DNA from: Verrucomicrobiia bacterium
Lineage (GTDB): Bacteria > Verrucomicrobiota > Verrucomicrobiia > Palsa-1439
Assembly (NCBI GenBank): GCA_050010195.1
Contig: JBEKLM010000001.1
Coordinates: forward strand, 65,045-129,044
Direction: 5' to 3'
DNA length: 64,000 nt
A model generated the notes under the pieces. That model was not told the origin of the DNA, did no database searches, and worked only from the letters and a program-made list of their open reading frames with translations. Each line of letters begins with the position of its first letter. The first letter of the stretch is position 1. The position numbers and the translations under genes are program-made. Of the stretch, positions 21,057 through 28,909 are shown one piece after another.

Positions 21057-21614
21057 TCACTTCGATGGAATGACGAGCTTCTGCCCGACCTTCAGCGAGT
21101 CGCTGGTCAGACTGTTGGCCTTCCTCAAATCGGCAACAGTGACGCCATTATTCTTGGCGATCACCGTCAGGTTGTCGCCCTTTTTGACCTCGTATTCATT
21201 GCCATTGGCCGGGCCGGCTGATGGATTGGTGGTGGTGCCGCCGCTACCGCCGCCATGCGAACCGCTCATGGCCGCGAGTTCCCTGGCGAGTTGATCGAGG
21301 ATGACTTTCTTGTCCGTCTCACGAGCGGCATCCAACGCCTTCACGCGTGCCTCTAGTGCCTCTAAGTCGTTGGCGGAGGCACTTGGTCCAGACTGATGGA
21401 GTTCTGCGAGTTGCGCCTGGACTTGTTTGAGGTCCTGCTGGATTTGCTGCTGGTTCGCTTGGATCGCATCGACGTCCGCCCGCAGCTTGCTGAGGCGCTC
21501 GTCAAGGATGGACACCTGCTGGCCGATGGTTTGGTCCTCGGCTGGCGCAGTTGGTGCACCAGCGGTGCCGAGGACGACCAGTGTGGCAAAAATGAGAAGC
21601 TCCGTGTGTTTCAT
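21057..21614 (-). CDS. Secreted LysM-domain protein with coiled-coil region
   Basis: Signal peptide MKHTELLIFATLVVLGTAGA. Gln-rich coiled coil. C-terminal LysM (YEVKKGDNLTVIAKNNGVTVADLRKANSL…LKVGQKLVIP). Confidence 0.7.
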   Translation of the reverse strand: MKHTELLIFATLVVLGTAGAPTAPAEDQTIGQQVSILDERLSKLRADVDAIQANQQQIQQDLKQVQAQLAELHQSGPSASANDLEALEARVKALDAARETDKKVILDQLARELAAMSGSHGGGSGGTTTNPSAGPANGNEYEVKKGDNLTVIAKNNGVTVADLRKANSLTSDSLKVGQKLVIPSK

Positions 21615-21710
21615 GGCGGCAGTCTAGAAATCGTGGCGAAACGTTGCAAGTCCCGAATCGGCCCATGCGGAACGGCCTGGCCCGGAGGCTGATAATGACT
21701 GGCCTGAATC

Positions 21711-23114
21711 GTGCTCCCCTGCATGATGGACCAGTATTTCATGAGCATATCTGACCTTCAACATACCGAGGATGTCGCAGTTGAGGCCGAGTTGGGAGGA
21801 CCCGTCGTACCCGAAATTCCGACGGATTCGCTCACCCCGCTCTTCGCCAATCCCGCTGACTGGTTCGTCCCCCCATTCCCCGAGAAACTGGAGGCTTTGG
21901 ATGTCAGCCCCGGCTTCCTCGCCGAACTTGCGCTGAAGACCGTGCCGCTGGACTCCGACTGCAGCACCGCCACGATCGCCACCCGCATGCACCTGGGCAT
22001 CATGATCACCGAGGCGCTCCTCCAGCGGTTGTGCCACGATCGATTCATAGAAATCAAAGGTGTGGTGGGCCTGCACAACCATCGCTACGCGATGCTCGAT
22101 CACGGCTGGGAGGAGTTGCGACGCCTCACCAGTTTTTGCAGTTACGCCGGTCCGGCCCCCGTCTCCCTGAAGTCCTATACGGAGATGATCACGCAACAGG
22201 TGCGCAACCGTCCGCCCGCGACGCGCCAGGCCATCGAGCAGGCGATGTCGAACCTGATCCTCTCCGATTACGCCAAGGAAATTATCGGGTTGGTCATCGG
22301 CTCGGGACGCAGCCTGTTCCTCACCGGACCGTCGGGCAACGGCAAAACCGCCACCGCGCGCGCCCTCGTCGACGCGCTCCCCGGCGAAATCTGGATCCCG
22401 TATGCCATCGAAGTCGACGGCCAGGTGATCCGCGTCTTCGACGCCCACAACCATTCGCCCATTCCGCACGCGAACGACAATCATGATCGCCGCTGGGTGC
22501 GCATCCGTCCGCCACTGGTGGTGGTCGGCGGAGAGTTGACGCTCGACAGCCTCGAACTCGCCTACACCGAGACGCAGCGTTTTTACGAAGCGCCCCTCCA
22601 CGTCAAATCCAACGGCGGCGTGTTGGTGGTGGATGACCTCGGTCGCCAGCGTTGCTCCGCGACGGAATTGCTCAACCGCTGGATTGTCCCGCTGGAATAC
22701 CACGTCGATTACCTCACGTTGAGCACCGGCAAGAAAATTCAGGTGCCGTTCGAGCAGATCGTGGTGTTCGCGACGAATCTCGCCGAATCCGACCTCGAAG
22801 ACGAAGCGTTCATGCGCCGCATGGGCTACCGCCTTCATGCGGACGCACCCAGCCCCGAGACCTACACGGAAATTTTCCTGCGGTATGCCCGCGCCCGCGG
22901 GTTGTTCGCGGATGAAAACCTGGTGACCCAGTTGTTGCAGAAATACCAGACCGAAGGCCGCATCCCCAAGGCCTGTGATCCCCGTGACCTGATCGATCGC
23001 ACCATCGACCTCTGCCGGCTGCACAGACAGCCCGTCAAGCTGACAGAAGAAGGCCTCGAAGTTATCTGGAAGGGCTATTTCGGCCAACCCGGTACCGATC
23101 CCAAGCGGCGTTGA
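21711..23114 (+). CDS. AAA+ ATPase-domain protein, hypothetical
   Basis: Walker A LTGPSGNGKT, Walker B VLVVDDLGRQ, sensor/arginine-finger region. N-terminal ~180 aa without recognisable domain. Confidence 0.6.
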   Translation: MLPCMMDQYFMSISDLQHTEDVAVEAELGGPVVPEIPTDSLTPLFANPADWFVPPFPEKLEALDVSPGFLAELALKTVPLDSDCSTATIATRMHLGIMITEALLQRLCHDRFIEIKGVVGLHNHRYAMLDHGWEELRRLTSFCSYAGPAPVSLKSYTEMITQQVRNRPPATRQAIEQAMSNLILSDYAKEIIGLVIGSGRSLFLTGPSGNGKTATARALVDALPGEIWIPYAIEVDGQVIRVFDAHNHSPIPHANDNHDRRWVRIRPPLVVVGGELTLDSLELAYTETQRFYEAPLHVKSNGGVLVVDDLGRQRCSATELLNRWIVPLEYHVDYLTLSTGKKIQVPFEQIVVFATNLAESDLEDEAFMRRMGYRLHADAPSPETYTEIFLRYARARGLFADENLVTQLLQKYQTEGRIPKACDPRDLIDRTIDLCRLHRQPVKLTEEGLEVIWKGYFGQPGTDPKRR

Positions 23115-23600
23115 CCCCCGAATTTGGGTTCGTTTTTGGGTTCGTTTCACTCAGTTTTCCACGCCGGCTTGAATAAAATTGGGTTCGTTTGGTAACCCCC
23201 CACCCCCGCGGCGTCCGCCCCTCGTTATGCCCCGCTCTTCGTAGGGTAGGGACGGCTCGCCGAGCCGTCCGCTCATCCCATCGCAGCATCTGTCGTAGCT
23301 GACCGCCAGCCGAGAACCCTGAACCGTGAACCTCGAACCGATCCCTATATCAAAGAACCTGATAACCTTCCCCGACTCTATCACACGTCCCCAACCGCGT
23401 CCAGCACGAAATATCATTGTAGGATAATCGAAATAATCCATCAGCCGCACCCCCCACGCGGCGGCCGTCTTGTAGGGCAACCGGCCCGGTTGCCGCCTTC
23501 CGAATTGTAGGGCGGGATTGCCCGAATCCGATGAGGGTATCCCGCCGCTTTCCGAAAACCATCCGGGCATTGCCACCGCCGCGATTTTTCTCTATCGTCC
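23115..23600. repeat. Non-coding repeat-rich region: three copies of GGGTTCGTTT plus three TGTAGGG-hairpin units
   Basis: GGGTTCGTTT at ~23128, 23140, 23194. The TGTAGGG hairpin units are at ~23243 (gggacggctcg/cgagccgtcc), ~23473 (gcaaccgg/ccggttgc) and ~23507 (cgggatt…aatccg). Confidence 0.5.
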
Positions 23601-23605
23601 TCCAT

Positions 23606-24349
23606 ATGAGCACCGATTTGAAAGGAAAGGTCGCATTGGTCACCGGCGCGTCGCGCGGGATCGGTCGCGCCATCGCCGAGCGGCTCAGCCGTGACGGCGC
23701 CGCGGTCGCCATAAATTATGCCTCTCAGGCGGCTGCCGCCCGGCAACTGGCCAGCGAAATTGAATCCGCCGGTGGAAAAGCGTTTGCCATTCAGGCCGAC
23801 GTGGGGCGCGTGGCGGACGTCGTCCGGCTCTTCGACGAAACCATCGCCCGCTTCGGGAAGCTCGATATTCTGGTGAATAACGCCGGCATCATGTCCACCA
23901 AGCCGGTCAGGGACGTGTCCGAGACCGAGTACGACCGCATTTTCGCGGTCAACGTGAAAGGCACCTTCTTCGCCTGCCAGCAGGCCGCCACCCGCCTCGC
24001 CGACGGCGGCCGCATCATCAATCTGTCCAGTTCGACCACCGCCCGGATCATGCCGAACTACGGCGCCTATGTCGCCACCAAGGGCGCGGTGGAACAGTTG
24101 ACCCGTTCCCTCGCGGGGGAACTCGGACCGCGCCGCATCACCGTCAATGCGATTTCACCGGGCCCGACCGAGACGGAGTTGTTCATGGACGGCAAAACCC
24201 CCGAACAGCTCCAGCGTTTCGCCCAGCAGGCCGCCCTCGGCCGGCTGGGTCAACCCGCCGAAATTGCCGAGGTCGTCGCCTTCCTCGCCTCCGACGCCGC
24301 CGCCTGGGTCACCGGCCAAAACCTCCGCGTCAACGGCGGCATCGCGTAA
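23606..24349 (+). CDS. SDR-family oxidoreductase (FabG-like 3-oxoacyl reductase)
   Basis: TGASRGIGRAIA cofactor motif, NNAG, catalytic S…Y…K (YVATKGAVEQ). ATG 23606 (MSTDLKGK). Confidence 0.85.
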   Translation: MSTDLKGKVALVTGASRGIGRAIAERLSRDGAAVAINYASQAAAARQLASEIESAGGKAFAIQADVGRVADVVRLFDETIARFGKLDILVNNAGIMSTKPVRDVSETEYDRIFAVNVKGTFFACQQAATRLADGGRIINLSSSTTARIMPNYGAYVATKGAVEQLTRSLAGELGPRRITVNAISPGPTETELFMDGKTPEQLQRFAQQAALGRLGQPAEIAEVVAFLASDAAAWVTGQNLRVNGGIA

Positions 24350-24610
24350 AACAAAACCGCCGCCCGGCGACGGCCTCTGCTTTCAGCCGATTCATTCCAG
24401 CCTGCGAGCCACGCCCGCAATGCAAGCGGGCATTGCCGACCACCTTTGGAGTTTGTAGGAAGTGGCGCAACGGCAACGGCTTAATTCGAATTACCGATAG
24501 GCCGGCGTTGCGGCAATTCGGGGTAGGGCCTGATACGGGAACGGCAACCTGAGTGGTTAAGAAATAGAGCTTGACACTGTTTTTAGTAAATATTACGAAT
24601 ATTAACCATT

Positions 24611-25273
24611 ATGAAATCACAATCTGAATTCTTAACCGCAATCCGTGACGACTGGACCCCCGAGAACATTGCCGGTTTGGTTTCAGCGATCACCGCTGGC
24701 TATGCGGCGGTGATCGAAAGAACAAACCCAAGCGTCGACCCGATTTACGACACACCGAATCTGTCACTCCTGCAGGGATACACACGATGGAACTTCGTAG
24801 ACTCTCGACTGTATCGCGCCTGCGACATAGGCCTTATCACGGGGATTAAACCGAAGTGGGTCCCTCTGACCGAAAATGGTACGGGGATTATGGCGCTGGA
24901 ATTGCAGGGTAGATTCACGTCCTTGATGGCGCATCACCTTCAGAATGCCGCCGACCCCCCAAGGTACTCGGAGCTGCGTTACGATCGGCGCCTTCGCAAC
25001 TGGCAGAATCCTATGCTTCCCGGGTACGGCGCTGACGAGCCGACCAACGGACTAATCCATTTGACGTTGGTTCACGGCAACAAGAATGCGGAGTTCGCGT
25101 TTCTCCGGATTTTCGACAATCCAGACGACCCGCAATCCTACGTCGCCGCGTCGGGGAACATCATGCTGAACCCGTCGATTATGATTTCGACCGAAGCGGA
25201 GCATGTCGAGGAGCCGAAGATTGAGCTGAAGAAGGAATCCCGCCAAGACGAACAACGAGCGCAGAACGAATGA
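24611..25273 (+). CDS. Hypothetical 220-aa protein (candidate toxin/effector partner of the downstream HTH-ImmA/IrrE gene)
   Basis: No recognisable motif, soluble, acidic/basic C-terminal tail. Stop overlaps the downstream start (ATGA). Lies in a low-GC islet; AT-rich promoter-like region with TTGACA at 24571. Confidence 0.5.
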   Translation: MKSQSEFLTAIRDDWTPENIAGLVSAITAGYAAVIERTNPSVDPIYDTPNLSLLQGYTRWNFVDSRLYRACDIGLITGIKPKWVPLTENGTGIMALELQGRFTSLMAHHLQNAADPPRYSELRYDRRLRNWQNPMLPGYGADEPTNGLIHLTLVHGNKNAEFAFLRIFDNPDDPQSYVAASGNIMLNPSIMISTEAEHVEEPKIELKKESRQDEQRAQNE

Positions 25274-26421
25274 ATCGCGCCGACCCAGAGAGAATCAGTC
25301 AAGCGAGAGAACTGGCCGGTCTTAGCAAGACGAAACTCGCTGACCTACTGGATGTGACGCCCGCCGCTGTCGCACAATGGGAAAGCGGTGTGAAGAGCCC
25401 GACAATGGATAACATAGTCGCGCTATCTCGTTCGTTGAATTTTCCAATGCCGCTGTTGCTAAGGGTGATTCCAAGAGAATTGTCCCATAAGGGGCCGGTC
25501 ACGTTTCGCGCATGGAACTCTGCAAACACACGTCGAGCCAATCGCCGAGCAGAACGATTGGCCGAACTAGTGGCCGAGGTGTTCCTGTGGCTGGAGCAGC
25601 ATATATCGTTGCCATCACCATCACTTCCGGAAATCAGCCATCGAGCGGACGTTGAGATGGCGGCCATAGAATGCAGAAGGACCTGGAAGCTCGGTGATCG
25701 CCCCATTCTGAAACTCGGAGAACTGATCGAATCAAAAGGCATAGCCATTGCGAGAGCCTCATTTGCCGACACCCGTTTCGACGCATTTTCGTGCATCATA
25801 AACGGTCGTCCATACGTTTTCTTGGGAGATGAGAAACTAGATCGCGCTCGGTCTCGCTTCGACGCTGCCCATGAGCTCGGACATCTTTTATTGCACCAAC
25901 ATCTGACAGAATCAGATTTCCTAACCGCAGACACGCTAAACACAATAGAAGCCGAAGCAAACCGTTTCGCAAGTGCGTTCCTGATGCCCGAAGGGACGTT
26001 CCTACCAGATGTTATGGATGCCAGCTTGGATGGATTTCTGAAATTGAAACCCAGATGGGGTGTTTCAGTCCAAGCAATGATCGTGCGTTCACACGATCTT
26101 GGGATCATCACTGACAACCAATACCGTGAGCTGTTTCGTCAGACAGGCTTGAAGGGATGGCGAAGAGCTAAGGGCGAGCCATTTGACGACATGGTACCAG
26201 ACATCCAAGGTTCGCTAGGAAAGAAGAGCTTAGAACTTTTGGAGTCAAACGCCGTTATACATGGCTGGGAGATCCCGACCGAGCTCCCAATGCCGACGCA
26301 TGTACTGTGCGAGGTGTTCCGAGCGAACCCTCAATTGTTCAGTCCCTCCGAGTTCGGGAATATAATCCCTTTCGAGAGGCCCGCTGAGGGTGACTCTACG
26401 GGCCGAAGGAGGAGTAATTGA
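25270..26421 (+). CDS. HTH_XRE (Cro/C1) DNA-binding domain fused to ImmA/IrrE-family (COG2856) zinc metallopeptidase
   Basis: N-terminal ISQARELAGLSKTKLADLLDVTPAAVAQWESGVKSPTMDNIVALSRSL is a classic XRE HTH. HELGHLLLH HEXXH plus downstream EANRFASAFLMPE glutamate match the ImmA/IrrE protease core. Confidence 0.8.
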   Translation: MNRADPERISQARELAGLSKTKLADLLDVTPAAVAQWESGVKSPTMDNIVALSRSLNFPMPLLLRVIPRELSHKGPVTFRAWNSANTRRANRRAERLAELVAEVFLWLEQHISLPSPSLPEISHRADVEMAAIECRRTWKLGDRPILKLGELIESKGIAIARASFADTRFDAFSCIINGRPYVFLGDEKLDRARSRFDAAHELGHLLLHQHLTESDFLTADTLNTIEAEANRFASAFLMPEGTFLPDVMDASLDGFLKLKPRWGVSVQAMIVRSHDLGIITDNQYRELFRQTGLKGWRRAKGEPFDDMVPDIQGSLGKKSLELLESNAVIHGWEIPTELPMPTHVLCEVFRANPQLFSPSEFGNIIPFERPAEGDSTGRRRSN

Positions 26422-26488
26422 AGCAGATCAACATGAGAGGAGACGATTACAATGTGCGGAGCTAAGAGGAAACCGCTGAGCTTCACAC

Positions 26489-26917
26489 TCAACGCTTGGG
26501 GAACAAATAATTGGCCACTATGATGAAAATACTTATGACGCTCGCGGTCGTCCCCCCAACCACGGCCAAGAGAACGCTGTCAGAAAGTTTGAAAACAGTC
26601 CTGATGGCGTAAAGTGCTTTCCCGTGAGAAATAATCATCGGAGGTGATGTCGTGTCGCTCAGGAAGCCCTGTAACAGCAGCATAGCGAACACACCGACAA
26701 GCCAGAGGCAGAGCATGCTGAAAATCTTGCGCGCATACTCTTTTCGCTCCGTGATGTCCTGACGGAATCCCTCCAGTTCCGCCTTCTGCCGATCGACCTC
26801 AATCTGCTTGGCATAATCCTTCTGTTCTTCTTCTGCTTCTGGCGTCGGCGCAGGAGCCGTGGGCTCTTTGATCTGCTTTAGGTTAATCATGGGCGCATCG
26901 GCGACCACAATCGTCAA
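26489..26917 (-). CDS. Small two-TM membrane protein (candidate membrane-acting toxin, PanT-like)
   Basis: Two hydrophobic helices (IFSMLCLWLVGVFAMLLLQGF and LLAVVGGTTASVISIFIIVANYLF). TTG start overlapping the upstream stop (TTGA); alternative ATG at 26890. Confidence 0.45.
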   Translation of the reverse strand: MTIVVADAPMINLKQIKEPTAPAPTPEAEEEQKDYAKQIEVDRQKAELEGFRQDITERKEYARKIFSMLCLWLVGVFAMLLLQGFLSDTTSPPMIISHGKALYAIRTVFKLSDSVLLAVVGGTTASVISIFIIVANYLFPKR

Positions 26918-27423
26918 TTCTTGGACTTTTGAAGGAAATATTCCTTTATCAAGCCATCCGGTATGTCGGCTCCCTTTTTGTCCTTCCCGCCCAACTCAAA
27001 CCAAGTTTTGAACCAAGGGGTGTCGGGTTGGTGTGTAAGTGTCGACAGCTGCAGTGCCGAGAAGCCGCCATATACTTCCCAAATTTTGTCGAAGAATTCC
27101 CCGAGAGTATGATCACTTGGCAGGCAACATTCGACGTACTTAATCTCCCCCTTTTTCATCCAAGCTTCCAAATCGAGGTCGGTGGCGTGATCCGTGATTG
27201 GCTCTGTTCCATATTGCTTGAATGCGTGATACACCGAGGGCACGACCGGGCCAAACCTCCACGCCTCAATCGATTCGTTCAGAAGCGCGGAATCTTTGAG
27301 TGCCAAATGCCAGCCGTGAGCAAAATAGAGTAGCTTTAGCAGCTTCATCGGGGTGACTGAGCTTCCCCGGCCGCTAGCAATATCCAGAATATGATTGGCG
27401 ACTGCCTTCGACGGATACCCCAT
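26914..27423 (-). CDS. Panacea-domain (DUF4065, GepA/SocA-like) protein, candidate PanA antitoxin
   Basis: MKLLKLLYFAHGWHLAL…EAWRFGPVVPSVYHAF matches the DUF4065/Panacea core (KLqKLlYfaqgW … aw..GPV…vY). 169 aa. Confidence 0.7.
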   Translation of the reverse strand: MGYPSKAVANHILDIASGRGSSVTPMKLLKLLYFAHGWHLALKDSALLNESIEAWRFGPVVPSVYHAFKQYGTEPITDHATDLDLEAWMKKGEIKYVECCLPSDHTLGEFFDKIWEVYGGFSALQLSTLTHQPDTPWFKTWFELGGKDKKGADIPDGLIKEYFLQKSKN

Positions 27424-27557
27424 GAATGCACCTTTTCACATGTTGCTAGATTCGCGTCAAGCACAACGATGTACCACACTTTTGTGTGGTGTCAAGCTTT
27501 TTGAATCTTTGCGTCCATCCGATTTCAAACCGAGCCACCATCCCGCTTTCGTCGGAG

Positions 27558-27586
27558 TTGACATCCCCCGCCGGATTTGCTAGCTT
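27558..27586 (+). promoter_or_regulatory. Candidate sigma70-type promoter for the aro leader transcript (TTGACA-17-TGcTAGCTT, extended -10)
   Basis: TTGACA 27558-27563, 17-nt spacer, TGn + TAGCTT 27578-27586. The predicted TSS would be only ~4 nt before the leader ATG, so this is uncertain. Confidence 0.3.
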
Positions 27587-27596
27587 ACATTTGAAC

Positions 27597-27686
27597 ATGA
27601 AGTCAGTGCATCAATACATCTCCGCAGTCCGGGCGTCGTATTATTGGTTTTACTTTAGCCAGCCCTGTCTGCGGGCTGTGTGTTGA
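27597..27686 (+). CDS. 29-codon attenuator leader peptide MKSVHQYISAVRASYYWFYFSQPCLRAVC with six consecutive aromatic codons
   Basis: Codons 27639-27656 = UAU UAU UGG UUU UAC UUU (Y Y W F Y F). The stop is 22 nt before an intrinsic terminator, directly upstream of the DAHP synthase gene. No obvious SD. Confidence 0.55.
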   Translation: MKSVHQYISAVRASYYWFYFSQPCLRAVC

Positions 27687-27707
27687 TGCGTAAACGTTGA
27701 CACCCAA

Positions 27708-27736
27708 CCGTCCCGCAGACGCGGGACGGTTTTTTT
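27708..27736 (+). terminator. Rho-independent terminator (attenuator 3:4 hairpin) ccgtcccgc-agac-gcgggacgg + T7
   Basis: 9-bp GC-rich stem 27708-27716/27721-27729, 4-nt loop, seven T 27730-27736. Upstream segment 27667-27675 (gtctgcggg) is complementary to 27712-27720 (cccgcagac) = antiterminator. 27660-27665 (cagccc) pairs with 27673-27678 (gggctg) = anti-antiterminator. Confidence 0.7.
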
Positions 27737-27780
27737 ATTGCCCAAAACCGAACCGCGTACAGGACATAAGGAGCAAAGGA

Positions 27781-28806
27781 ATGATCATCGTGTTAAAGCC
27801 GGGAACCAGTGAACAGGATGTCCAGCAGGTCGCGGACGCGGTGAAGAAGTTCAATTACGAGCCCCGCCTGATTCGCGGCGTGGAGCGCACCGTCGTCGCT
27901 TGCATCGGCGATGAACGCAACCATCACACCCTCGAATCCCTCATCGTGTTGCCGCAGGTCGAGAGCGTCACTCCCATTCAGAAGAAGTACAAACTCGTCA
28001 GCCGCGAATACCAGGGACGCGATACCGTGCTCGACGTGGCCGGACTCAAAATCGGCGGCGGCACGTTCCACGTGGTGGCGGGCCCGTGCTCGGTGGAAAA
28101 CCAGACGCAAACTTTGGAAACCGCGAAAGCGGTGAAGTCGTACGGCGCGACACTCTTTCGTGGTGGCGCATTCAAGCCGCGCACGTCGCCGTACGACTTC
28201 CAGGGATTGGGCCGCGAGGGGCTTGAGATGTTGAAGCAGGCCCGCGCGGCCACGGGATTGCCCATCGTGACCGAAGTGATGTCGCCGCAAGACGTGGAAA
28301 TGGTGGCGTCTTACGCCGACATTCTGCAGATCGGGGCGCGCAACGCCCAAAATGTCCCGTTGCTGGCCGAGGTCGCGGCGTCGGGCAAGGTCATCCTGCT
28401 CAAACGCGGGGTGTCCGGGTTGATCGACGAATGGCTGCTGGCCGCCGAGTACATCTGCGTGCATGGCAACAGCAAAGTGATCCTCTGCGAGCGGGGTATC
28501 CGCACGTTCGAGCACGCCTGCCGCAACACGCTCGATCTCAGCGCGGTCGCGGTCGCCAAAAAGGAAACGCACCTGCCGGTGTTCGTGGACCCGAGCCATG
28601 CGGCGGGCCGATTCGACATGGTGATCCCGCTCGCTCGCGCCGCCGTTGCGGTGGGCGCGGACGGTTTGCTGGTGGAAGTCCATCCCGATCCGGCTGCGGC
28701 ACTTAGTGACGGGGGCCAGCAGCTCAAACCCAAGCAGTTCGGCCAGTTGATGGCGGAAATTCGCCCCATTGTCGAAGTGATGGGCAAACAGTTGGGCGGC
28801 GCTTAG
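27781..28806 (+). CDS. 3-deoxy-7-phosphoheptulonate (DAHP) synthase, type I-beta with N-terminal ACT/ferredoxin-like regulatory domain
   Basis: Strong SD aaggagcaaaggaATG. N-terminal MIIVLKPGTSEQDVQQVADAVKKF regulatory domain. KDO8P/DAHP synthase barrel motifs (KPRTSPYDFQG, GARNAQN, VDPSHA). Confidence 0.9.
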   Translation: MIIVLKPGTSEQDVQQVADAVKKFNYEPRLIRGVERTVVACIGDERNHHTLESLIVLPQVESVTPIQKKYKLVSREYQGRDTVLDVAGLKIGGGTFHVVAGPCSVENQTQTLETAKAVKSYGATLFRGGAFKPRTSPYDFQGLGREGLEMLKQARAATGLPIVTEVMSPQDVEMVASYADILQIGARNAQNVPLLAEVAASGKVILLKRGVSGLIDEWLLAAEYICVHGNSKVILCERGIRTFEHACRNTLDLSAVAVAKKETHLPVFVDPSHAAGRFDMVIPLARAAVAVGADGLLVEVHPDPAAALSDGGQQLKPKQFGQLMAEIRPIVEVMGKQLGGA

Positions 28807-28829
28807 CAGCCGTTGAAAAGTGGTGTAGC

Positions 28830-28860
28830 GGCGCTTCTGTGAAGCGCCAAGCCGTTTGTC
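28830..28860 (+). terminator. Candidate terminator hairpin after DAHP synthase (ggcgcttc-tgt-gaagcgcc followed by weak T-rich tract)
   Basis: 8-bp stem 28830-28837/28841-28848 then aagccgtttgtctctt. The U-tract is imperfect. Confidence 0.3.
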
Positions 28861-28909
28861 TCTTGGGAAATTCTGTGGCTCACAAAGCCACCGCTACAAC
28901 GGAACTTTG

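Follow-up and report, generated by a model that had tools for sequence, protein, structure and literature searches.

RosmerTA is a defence system in which a zinc-peptidase antitoxin, RmrA, accompanies toxins (RmrT) of unassigned function, and for which a construct lacking rmrA could not be transformed (Millman et al., 2022; 10.1101/2022.05.11.491447). The RmrA/ImmA domain is a hub antitoxin domain found in partnership with many toxins, and in the RosmerTA family the toxin gene comes first in 58% of cases; one phage-borne RmrT, that of Gordonia phage Kita, brings about membrane depolarization (Ernits et al., 2023; PMC10440598). Antitoxins of the Panacea type neutralize many kinds of toxin through complex formation, and the validated PanT toxins of E. 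coli, Bartonella and Helicobacter, which have a charged N-terminus and C-terminal transmembrane (TM) helices, depolarize membranes (Kurata et al., 2022; PMC8832971). Among the Panacea nodes of NetFlax, 78% have the toxin first (Ernits et al., 2023; PMC10440598). Here we analyze a low-GC islet of four genes, rmrT, rmrA, panA and panT, lying in a 64,000-nucleotide stretch of contig JBEKLM010000001.1 (assembly GCA_050010195.1) from an uncultured peatland Verrucomicrobiia bacterium; this whole stretch is called the window below, and positions are counted from its first letter.

The islet is best explained, with a probability of roughly 0.8, as horizontally acquired cargo in a hotspot, carrying two independent two-gene toxin-antitoxin (TA) modules of known kinds. 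This reading is carried by direct observations: the composition and boundaries of the islet, the family membership and strict pairing of its genes, their absence from the site in relatives, and a natural deletion of panA and panT. Four hypothetical genes of a peatland Verrucomicrobiia genome are in this way assigned to two already described TA/defence families, and the findings leave current understanding intact. Integrase-free hotspots for defence and accessory genes, situated between conserved core genes, are known from pan-genome studies of defence islands. The present site is like these in its two conserved flanks, its empty sites, its differing cargo and its enrichment in TA/defence genes and insertion sequence (IS) remnants, and unlike them in its peatland Verrucomicrobiia setting and in abutting the promoter of a putative amino-acid biosynthesis attenuator.

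The low-GC islet and its site

A preliminary description of this DNA reported a sharp drop in GC content between 24350 and 27560, and both sliding-window GC and GC at third codon positions (GC3) bear this out. GC is 0.522 over 24350–27696 against 0.595 in the rest of the window, the sliding profile falling from 0.60–0.66 to 0.50–0.56 between about 24400 and 27800. No other 3.2-kb stretch of the window is as poor in GC as the islet (minimum 0.519, starting at 24500), which lies some 4.8 standard deviations from the 3.2-kb windows that do not overlap it (mean 0.594, standard deviation 0.0155, minimum 0.544), and GC3 is 0.54–0.67 for its four genes as opposed to 0.70–0.82 for eleven other genes of the window. 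The flanks, which had been put at about 62–65% GC, are indeed richer than the islet but not uniform, ranging from about 0.58 to 0.66.

The limits initially assigned to the islet agree well with the segment 24360–27519 that is delimited by the closest species representative (L006, ~94% DNA identity), in which homology covers 21067–24359 and resumes at 27520, with a different 750-bp insert held between the two edges. Alignments with two other relatives break at 24359/27568 (L010) and 24378/27569 (L009). The right edge lies just before a TTGACA box (27558–27563) of the leader of the DAHP synthase gene. Between the edges are four intact open reading frames (ORFs), arranged as two overlapping, convergent pairs, the first on the plus strand and the second on the minus strand; the overlaps, ATGA between rmrT and rmrA and the four nucleotides TTGA between panA and panT, agree with the two translationally coupled pairs described earlier.

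For comparison across species, one genome per species was scanned with the DAHP synthase protein, yielding 44 loci, mostly from Verrucomicrobiia metagenome-assembled genomes of bogs and soils. The window itself corresponds to part of JGI contig Ga0427940_0000017. At none of the 44 loci does any of the four islet genes lie less than 10 kb from the DAHP synthase gene; the site is either empty or occupied by different cargo, and this check of synteny supports the horizontal origin for which composition had been taken to argue. The conserved neighbours of the site are a gene for a 467-amino-acid ATPase (g467; 21711–23114) and the DAHP synthase gene with its leader. In eight species the gap between the two is only 170–223 bp, an empty site; in 15 others it is 1.1–5.7 kb and filled with varied, unrelated cargo.

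Could the low GC instead be a property of these gene families, or of relaxed selection, rather than a sign of foreign origin? The PanAT modules of other contigs do also fall below their surroundings (0.47 vs 0.55, 0.51 vs 0.58 and 0.44 vs 0.50), as this explanation would have it. The segment, however, is absent from the site in all 44 related species, empty sites exist, and the contigs that hold the closest RmrTA homologues are of ~0.51–0.53 GC, matching the islet itself; we find this explanation scarcely credible.

The cargo found at the site in other species includes a PIN_10 and DUF433 TA pair (L010:8675–9423), a pentapeptide-repeat TIR protein (L012:7224–8342), an SPFH protein (L013), and a 581-amino-acid PARIS-like AriAB ATPase (PADLOC 1.8e-26) beside a DUF4145/PD-T7-4-like protein (L016:7156–9733). 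IS1595 transposases are among the cargo in L041 and L014, and elsewhere the gap contains GNAT acetyltransferases, an RNase T-like exonuclease, a fucosidase and a sigma-54 activator. Many further ORFs there belong to no family, and for many of the small ones in relatives neither Pfam nor PADLOC gave a match. The SDR gene to the left of the islet (23531–24349), host-like in composition (GC 0.655, GC3 0.82), had been taken as housekeeping context, a view that the comparison does not sustain: it is present in only 3 of the 23 relatives with both flanks (L006, L009 and L010), with a 59-bp remnant in L036, and is therefore itself variable cargo. Since few relatives have the SDR gene, and since two assemblies (L002 and L004, the latter at 100% identity to the window elsewhere) cease to match the window upstream of 23509, variation at the site reaches beyond the low-GC islet. 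Judged by these sequence comparisons, the site is an integrase-free recombination/insertion hotspot just upstream of the DAHP synthase promoter.

Scans bear out the earlier statement that integrase, tRNA and clear att repeat are all missing. No tRNA was found in the whole 64-kb window, no Rfam family matched anywhere in it at the gathering cut-off, no integrase was seen among its ORFs, and direct and inverted repeats over 23400–28900 amount to short, low-identity, chance-level pairs, with no att-like boundary repeat. An integrative genomic island or prophage remnant, considered as a candidate, finds no support in these same results. The mechanism of acquisition had been called not evident; this stands as regards mobility genes and att sites, but the left junction does preserve a relic of an IS1-family transposase (24381–24467). 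The relic aligns with residues 243–271 of QND69621.1 (CP050295.1) at 52% identity (E 1.5e-4 in about 0.9 Mb), and longer relics of the same IS1 gene are found in the same hotspot in L036 (101 amino acids, 5e-32), L009 (56 amino acids, 2e-18) and L041. When the four IS1 relics are aligned as DNA, similarity is confined to the coding relic and no common IS end can be defined. An assignment of the relic to IS1595 was tried and set aside: the IS1595 transposase of L041 has no match in the window, and the relic belongs to the IS1 family. IS activity, we infer, helped to build the hotspot; cargo exchange today probably proceeds by homologous recombination in the conserved flanks.

The rmrTA and panAT pairs

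That the islet would hold two TA- or defence-like modules was proposed at the outset, and both are now recognized, the one through PADLOC RosmerTA models and the other through Pfam SocA_Panacea and its two-TM partner. RmrA begins with an XRE helix-turn-helix (HTH) at residues 9–61 (Pfam HTH_3, 2.9e-12), continues with a Peptidase_M78/ImmA-IrrE zinc-peptidase domain at residues 154–273 (Pfam 9e-20) with an intact zinc-binding HELGH motif at residue 201, and ends in a C-terminal region. In the PDB, the peptidase domain matches CapP (7t5t, 1.5e-6) and the HTH the P22 C2 repressor. The PADLOC RmrA match spans residues 5–369 and is in that sense full-length, extending beyond the peptidase domain. 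RmrT aligns with positions 19–197 of the 215 of PADLOC profile PDLC03938; it matched no Pfam or NCBIfam family, and no TM segment is predicted in it. A profile searched exhaustively against 1.84 billion representatives returned only 76 clusters of RmrT relatives at 50% identity, and the PADLOC RmrT model is matched by 42 of 46 aligned members of this family, the best at 2.3e-90. Two 1,700-amino-acid repeat proteins (P0113 and P0120) were rejected as relatives, being spurious matches of low-complexity repeats to the RmrT tail.

Pairing of the two genes is strict. At nine of nine testable distinct loci of RmrT relatives (metagenome contigs with DNA downstream; RmrT identity 37–65%), an RmrA homologue of 54–74% identity lies immediately downstream on the same strand. 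A 642-amino-acid protein of the representative library (P0070) even joins an RmrT domain (residues 12–227), through a linker of ~50 residues, to a full RmrA with HTH and HELGH peptidase; it is a genuine fusion of toxin and antitoxin or else an artefact of a frameshift. The closest homologous pair (L050; 65% identity for RmrT and 74% for RmrA) belongs to a dense defence island (L050:1–12687) with type I restriction-modification, DUF4268, Peptidase_C14 (caspase-like) followed by DUF4760, Abi_alpha and TIR_2. Several unannotated ORFs are interspersed in that island, and these may be uncharacterized defence genes.

By the evidence of sequence, the pair at 24611–26421 is a RosmerTA system. Like described members of the family it is a two-gene operon, toxin first, whose antitoxin fuses an XRE HTH to an ImmA/M78 zinc-peptidase with HExxH and whose toxin falls in the PADLOC RmrT family. 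Unlike the membrane-depolarizing RmrT of Gordonia phage Kita, RmrT here is predicted to be soluble and belongs to a rare subfamily (the 76 clusters mentioned above); and, unlike described RosmerTA, the system is hosted by an uncultured Verrucomicrobiia bacterium and known from its sequence.

The combination of XRE HTH and COG2856/M78 peptidase also recalls the protease-repressor switches ImmR/ImmA of ICEBs1, DdrO/IrrE of Deinococcus and CapH/CapP of CBASS, from which RmrA differs in holding both domains in one polypeptide and in its partner, a toxin gene in place of an integrase, a DNA-repair regulon or CBASS. Since such fused or paired proteins control mobile elements and SOS-like responses, and since the IS1 relic testifies to past mobile DNA at the site, the HTH-peptidase gene might be an ImmR/ImmA-type regulator that survives from a decayed prophage or integrative element, the 220-amino-acid gene then being unrelated cargo and no toxin. 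This we regard as improbable: the two genes occur together and overlapping in nine of nine unrelated contexts and are fused once, the match to RmrA models is full-length rather than restricted to the peptidase domain, and no integrase, capsid or other element genes lie in or near the islet.

In the second pair, PanA matches Pfam SocA_Panacea over residues 28–137 with 73.5 bits, the gathering cut-off being 25.7. Its partner PanT has an acidic N-terminus and two hydrophobic helices by hydropathy, TM1 at residues 64–86 and TM2 at 114–136; an AlphaFold2 (AF2) model (pLDDT 81) gives a long helix, residues 26–86, that runs into TM1, then a short loop and a helix at 113–138. An alternative ATG start for panT lies 27 nt downstream. 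PanT has 43 homologues, which share the conserved segment GGTTAxVIGIFIxVANYLFPK; neither PanT nor any of these matched a Pfam family, and PanT had no NCBIfam match. Contexts of PanT relatives (28–46% identity) number 20, four on metagenome contigs and 16 on IMG/VR viral contigs, and in every one of them, 19 with DNA available and one without, the gene immediately upstream on the same strand encodes a PanA homologue. A tblastn search with PanT of PLSDB plasmids and INPHARED phages gave no match.

SocAB, the type VI TA system of Caulobacter in which the antitoxin SocA serves as ClpXP adaptor for the toxin SocB, was considered for this pair and rejected. The SocA score falls below the 190-bit cut-off and the partner is a two-TM protein without a family match, and for these reasons the pair is filed as PanAT. 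So classified from its sequence, the pair at 26489–27423 is a PanAT system, like those described in that a Panacea antitoxin gene adjoins and overlaps a small toxin gene whose product has a charged N-terminal part and C-terminal TM helices. It is unlike the validated PanAT pairs in that PanT here comes from an unannotated family (43 relatives, no Pfam match); its antitoxin gene comes first, which is the rarer arrangement among the Panacea nodes of NetFlax.

Because the partner gene adjoins in every testable locus, RmrT/RmrA and PanT/PanA each qualify, on the available contigs, as a conserved, co-inherited two-gene module, and each is also found without the other.

Strain variation, control and proposed action

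Within the species, the site varies further. Two assemblies (L002, ENA ERZ27315280; L005, SRR5208283) match the window with 100% identity as far as 26520 and resume at 27416, with both panA and panT gone and a reading frame ATG-GGG-TAG left behind; the intact panAT pair is present in L001, L003 and L004. To the left of the deletion L002 and the window share 100% identity across 3 kb, and to its right L002:3146–4133 has 99.1% identity to 27416–28403 (9 mismatches in 988 bp), a pattern that suggests either a recombination mosaic or an inter-strain assembly chimera. Strain-level variation of this kind supports ongoing turnover at the hotspot. With its empty sites, alternative cargos, IS1 relics and strain-level deletion, the hotspot could serve the study of defence-gene turnover in soil populations.

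The same variant bears on whether the four genes make up a single composite system in which the convergent pairs act jointly. The pairs are adjacent and are found together in three assemblies, as such a system would require, but relatives of RmrTA and of PanAT are each found in contexts that lack the other pair, and the variant from which panAT is deleted keeps rmrTA 100% identical; joint action is thus very improbable.

A further alternative, which we hold to be unlikely but with more in its favour, is that both modules are purely selfish addiction cassettes, maintained by killing upon loss or by stabilizing neighbouring DNA, and have no anti-phage role in this host. A defence role is undemonstrated for many TA modules, neither phage genes nor further defence systems border the islet within the window, and the hotspot also carries non-defence cargo (fucosidase, GNAT, sigma-54 activator, SDR). 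Yet the clean deletion of panA and panT in two assemblies implies that this module is not fixed by addiction, the RosmerTA systems tested so far do provide phage defence, the closest RmrTA homologue sits within a dense defence island, and the hotspot of relatives holds PARIS-like, TIR and PD-T7-4-like genes.

The proposal of acquired TA cargo is itself not without difficulties, and several observations weigh against it. The PADLOC score of the window's own RmrT is modest, 39.5 bits, and RmrT relatives were not found in PLSDB plasmids and INPHARED phages (tblastn) or in IMG/VR. PanA scores 123 bits against an NCBIfam SocA_antitoxin cut-off of 190, and PanT is likened to the validated PanTs by description rather than by direct sequence comparison. 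The window offers no phage, plasmid or integrase context to explain delivery of the islet. Finally, the toxicity, neutralization, trigger and anti-phage role proposed for both modules are drawn from the literature on their families.

As regards control, the stretch at 24540–24610 noted earlier as AT-rich is real and corresponds to the probable promoter region of the rmrTA module. An A-rich element, GGTTAAGAAA (24555–24564), is followed after six nucleotides by TTGACA (24571–24576), and this in turn by a palindromic pair, AATATT-ACG-AATATT (24589–24603). The motif GGTTAA(G/A)AAA-N5-6-TTGAC/TTGA precedes rmrT relatives in L050, L084, L085, L086 and L088, and because the same arrangement recurs in these unrelated contigs the promoter would seem to travel with the module, apparently bringing along a UP-like element and a −35 box. 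A palindrome after the promoter motif is found in L055 as in the window, that of L055 being a different 9-bp palindrome in the same place, and the rmrTA palindrome is a candidate operator for the RmrA HTH. Upstream of panA, a perfect 7-bp inverted repeat, ACCACAC-N4-GTGTGGT (27471–27492), lies between TTGAC boxes. Since a scan for the sigma-70 consensus found 4 sites against 2.6 expected, and did not exceed shuffles, these promoter statements rest on the conserved motif.

The manner in which the two modules might act follows described systems. RmrA most likely represses the rmrTA operon at the palindrome beside the TTGACA box and would keep RmrT, as a soluble toxin, inactive. By analogy with the protease-repressor pairs ImmR/ImmA, DdrO/IrrE and CapH/CapP, infection or damage would switch RmrA off, and RmrT would then stop growth of the infected cell. 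PanA, a Panacea-domain protein, would for its part bind PanT and neutralize it; PanT, once released, would insert into the inner membrane via its two C-terminal helices and depolarize the membrane.

What RmrT might do as a toxin can be approached through its predicted structure. The AF2 model is confident (pLDDT 89.8, pTM 0.82) and consists of an alpha/beta core preceded by three N-terminal helices; neither the PDB nor BFVD gave a significant structural match to it, and the RmrT profile yielded only chance hits among PDB sequences. Weak structural matches repeatedly include restriction endonucleases, Holliday-junction resolvases and other PD-(D/E)xK proteins; a nuclease-like fold is only a lead. 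The invariant or near-invariant residues are W15, G56, W83, L98, H109, R123, N130, H155, G156, L165, N183 and E197, of which N130, N183 and E197 are invariant, and these conserved residues do not make up a canonical nuclease motif. N183 and E197 sit in a conserved C-terminal tail modelled with low confidence (poorly ordered). Tentatively, the RmrT subfamily may represent a soluble toxin whose fold and activity have no counterpart as yet among solved structures, its C-terminal tail offering RmrA a possible handle by which to hold or process the toxin; were this doubtful idea true, the pair would be a tractable model of infection sensing by RosmerTA. The rare RmrT subfamily is a candidate for biochemistry, both for its activity and for its control by RmrA.

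Feature coordinates and neighbouring elements

Table 1. Position, strand and basis of assignment of the features of the islet, in window coordinates.
Feature	Position	Strand	Basis
Inserted low-GC segment (islet)	24360..27519		Delimited by comparison with relatives; GC 0.52 vs 0.595
IS1-family transposase 3'-end relic, 29 codons, in-frame stop	24381..24467	+	tblastn with QND69621.1
rmrTA promoter region	24555..24610	+	Motif recurrence upstream of RmrT relatives; operator role putative
rmrT, 220-aa soluble toxin candidate	24611..25273	+	PADLOC RmrT PDLC03938, 8.7e-11
rmrA, 383-aa antitoxin/repressor candidate	25270..26421	+	PADLOC RmrA, 1.8e-92; HTH_3 and Peptidase_M78
panT, 142-aa membrane toxin candidate	26489..26917	-	Two TM helices; conserved downstream of panA
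panAT deletion segment in natural variant, 895 bp	26521..27415		Junction GGCCACTA / CCCCATGA, 2-nt microhomology (TA)
panA, 169-aa Panacea (DUF4065, PF13274) antitoxin	26914..27423	-	Pfam SocA_Panacea, 3.3e-20
panAT upstream region	27424..27519	-	Two TTGAC(A/G) boxes and inverted repeat; promoter/operator role putative

Two observations concern the conserved neighbours. The g467 product (467 amino acids) contains a Walker-A motif, GPSGNGKT, has no Pfam hit on record, and its gene keeps its place beside the DAHP synthase gene throughout the clade. On the other side of the site, the leader region of the DAHP synthase gene (27558–27745) comprises a 29-codon leader peptide (27598–27687), MKSVHQYISAVRASYYWFYFSQPCLRAVC, containing six aromatic residues in a row, and a terminator (27706–27731), a strong hairpin with a U-run that precedes the gene. 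Because the leader is rich in aromatic residues and followed by a terminator, is conserved in this aromatic-rich form ahead of the DAHP synthase genes of about 28 related species, and folds as RNA far better than shuffles (z −5.7), the sequence supports its reading as an attenuator sensing Trp, Phe or Tyr.

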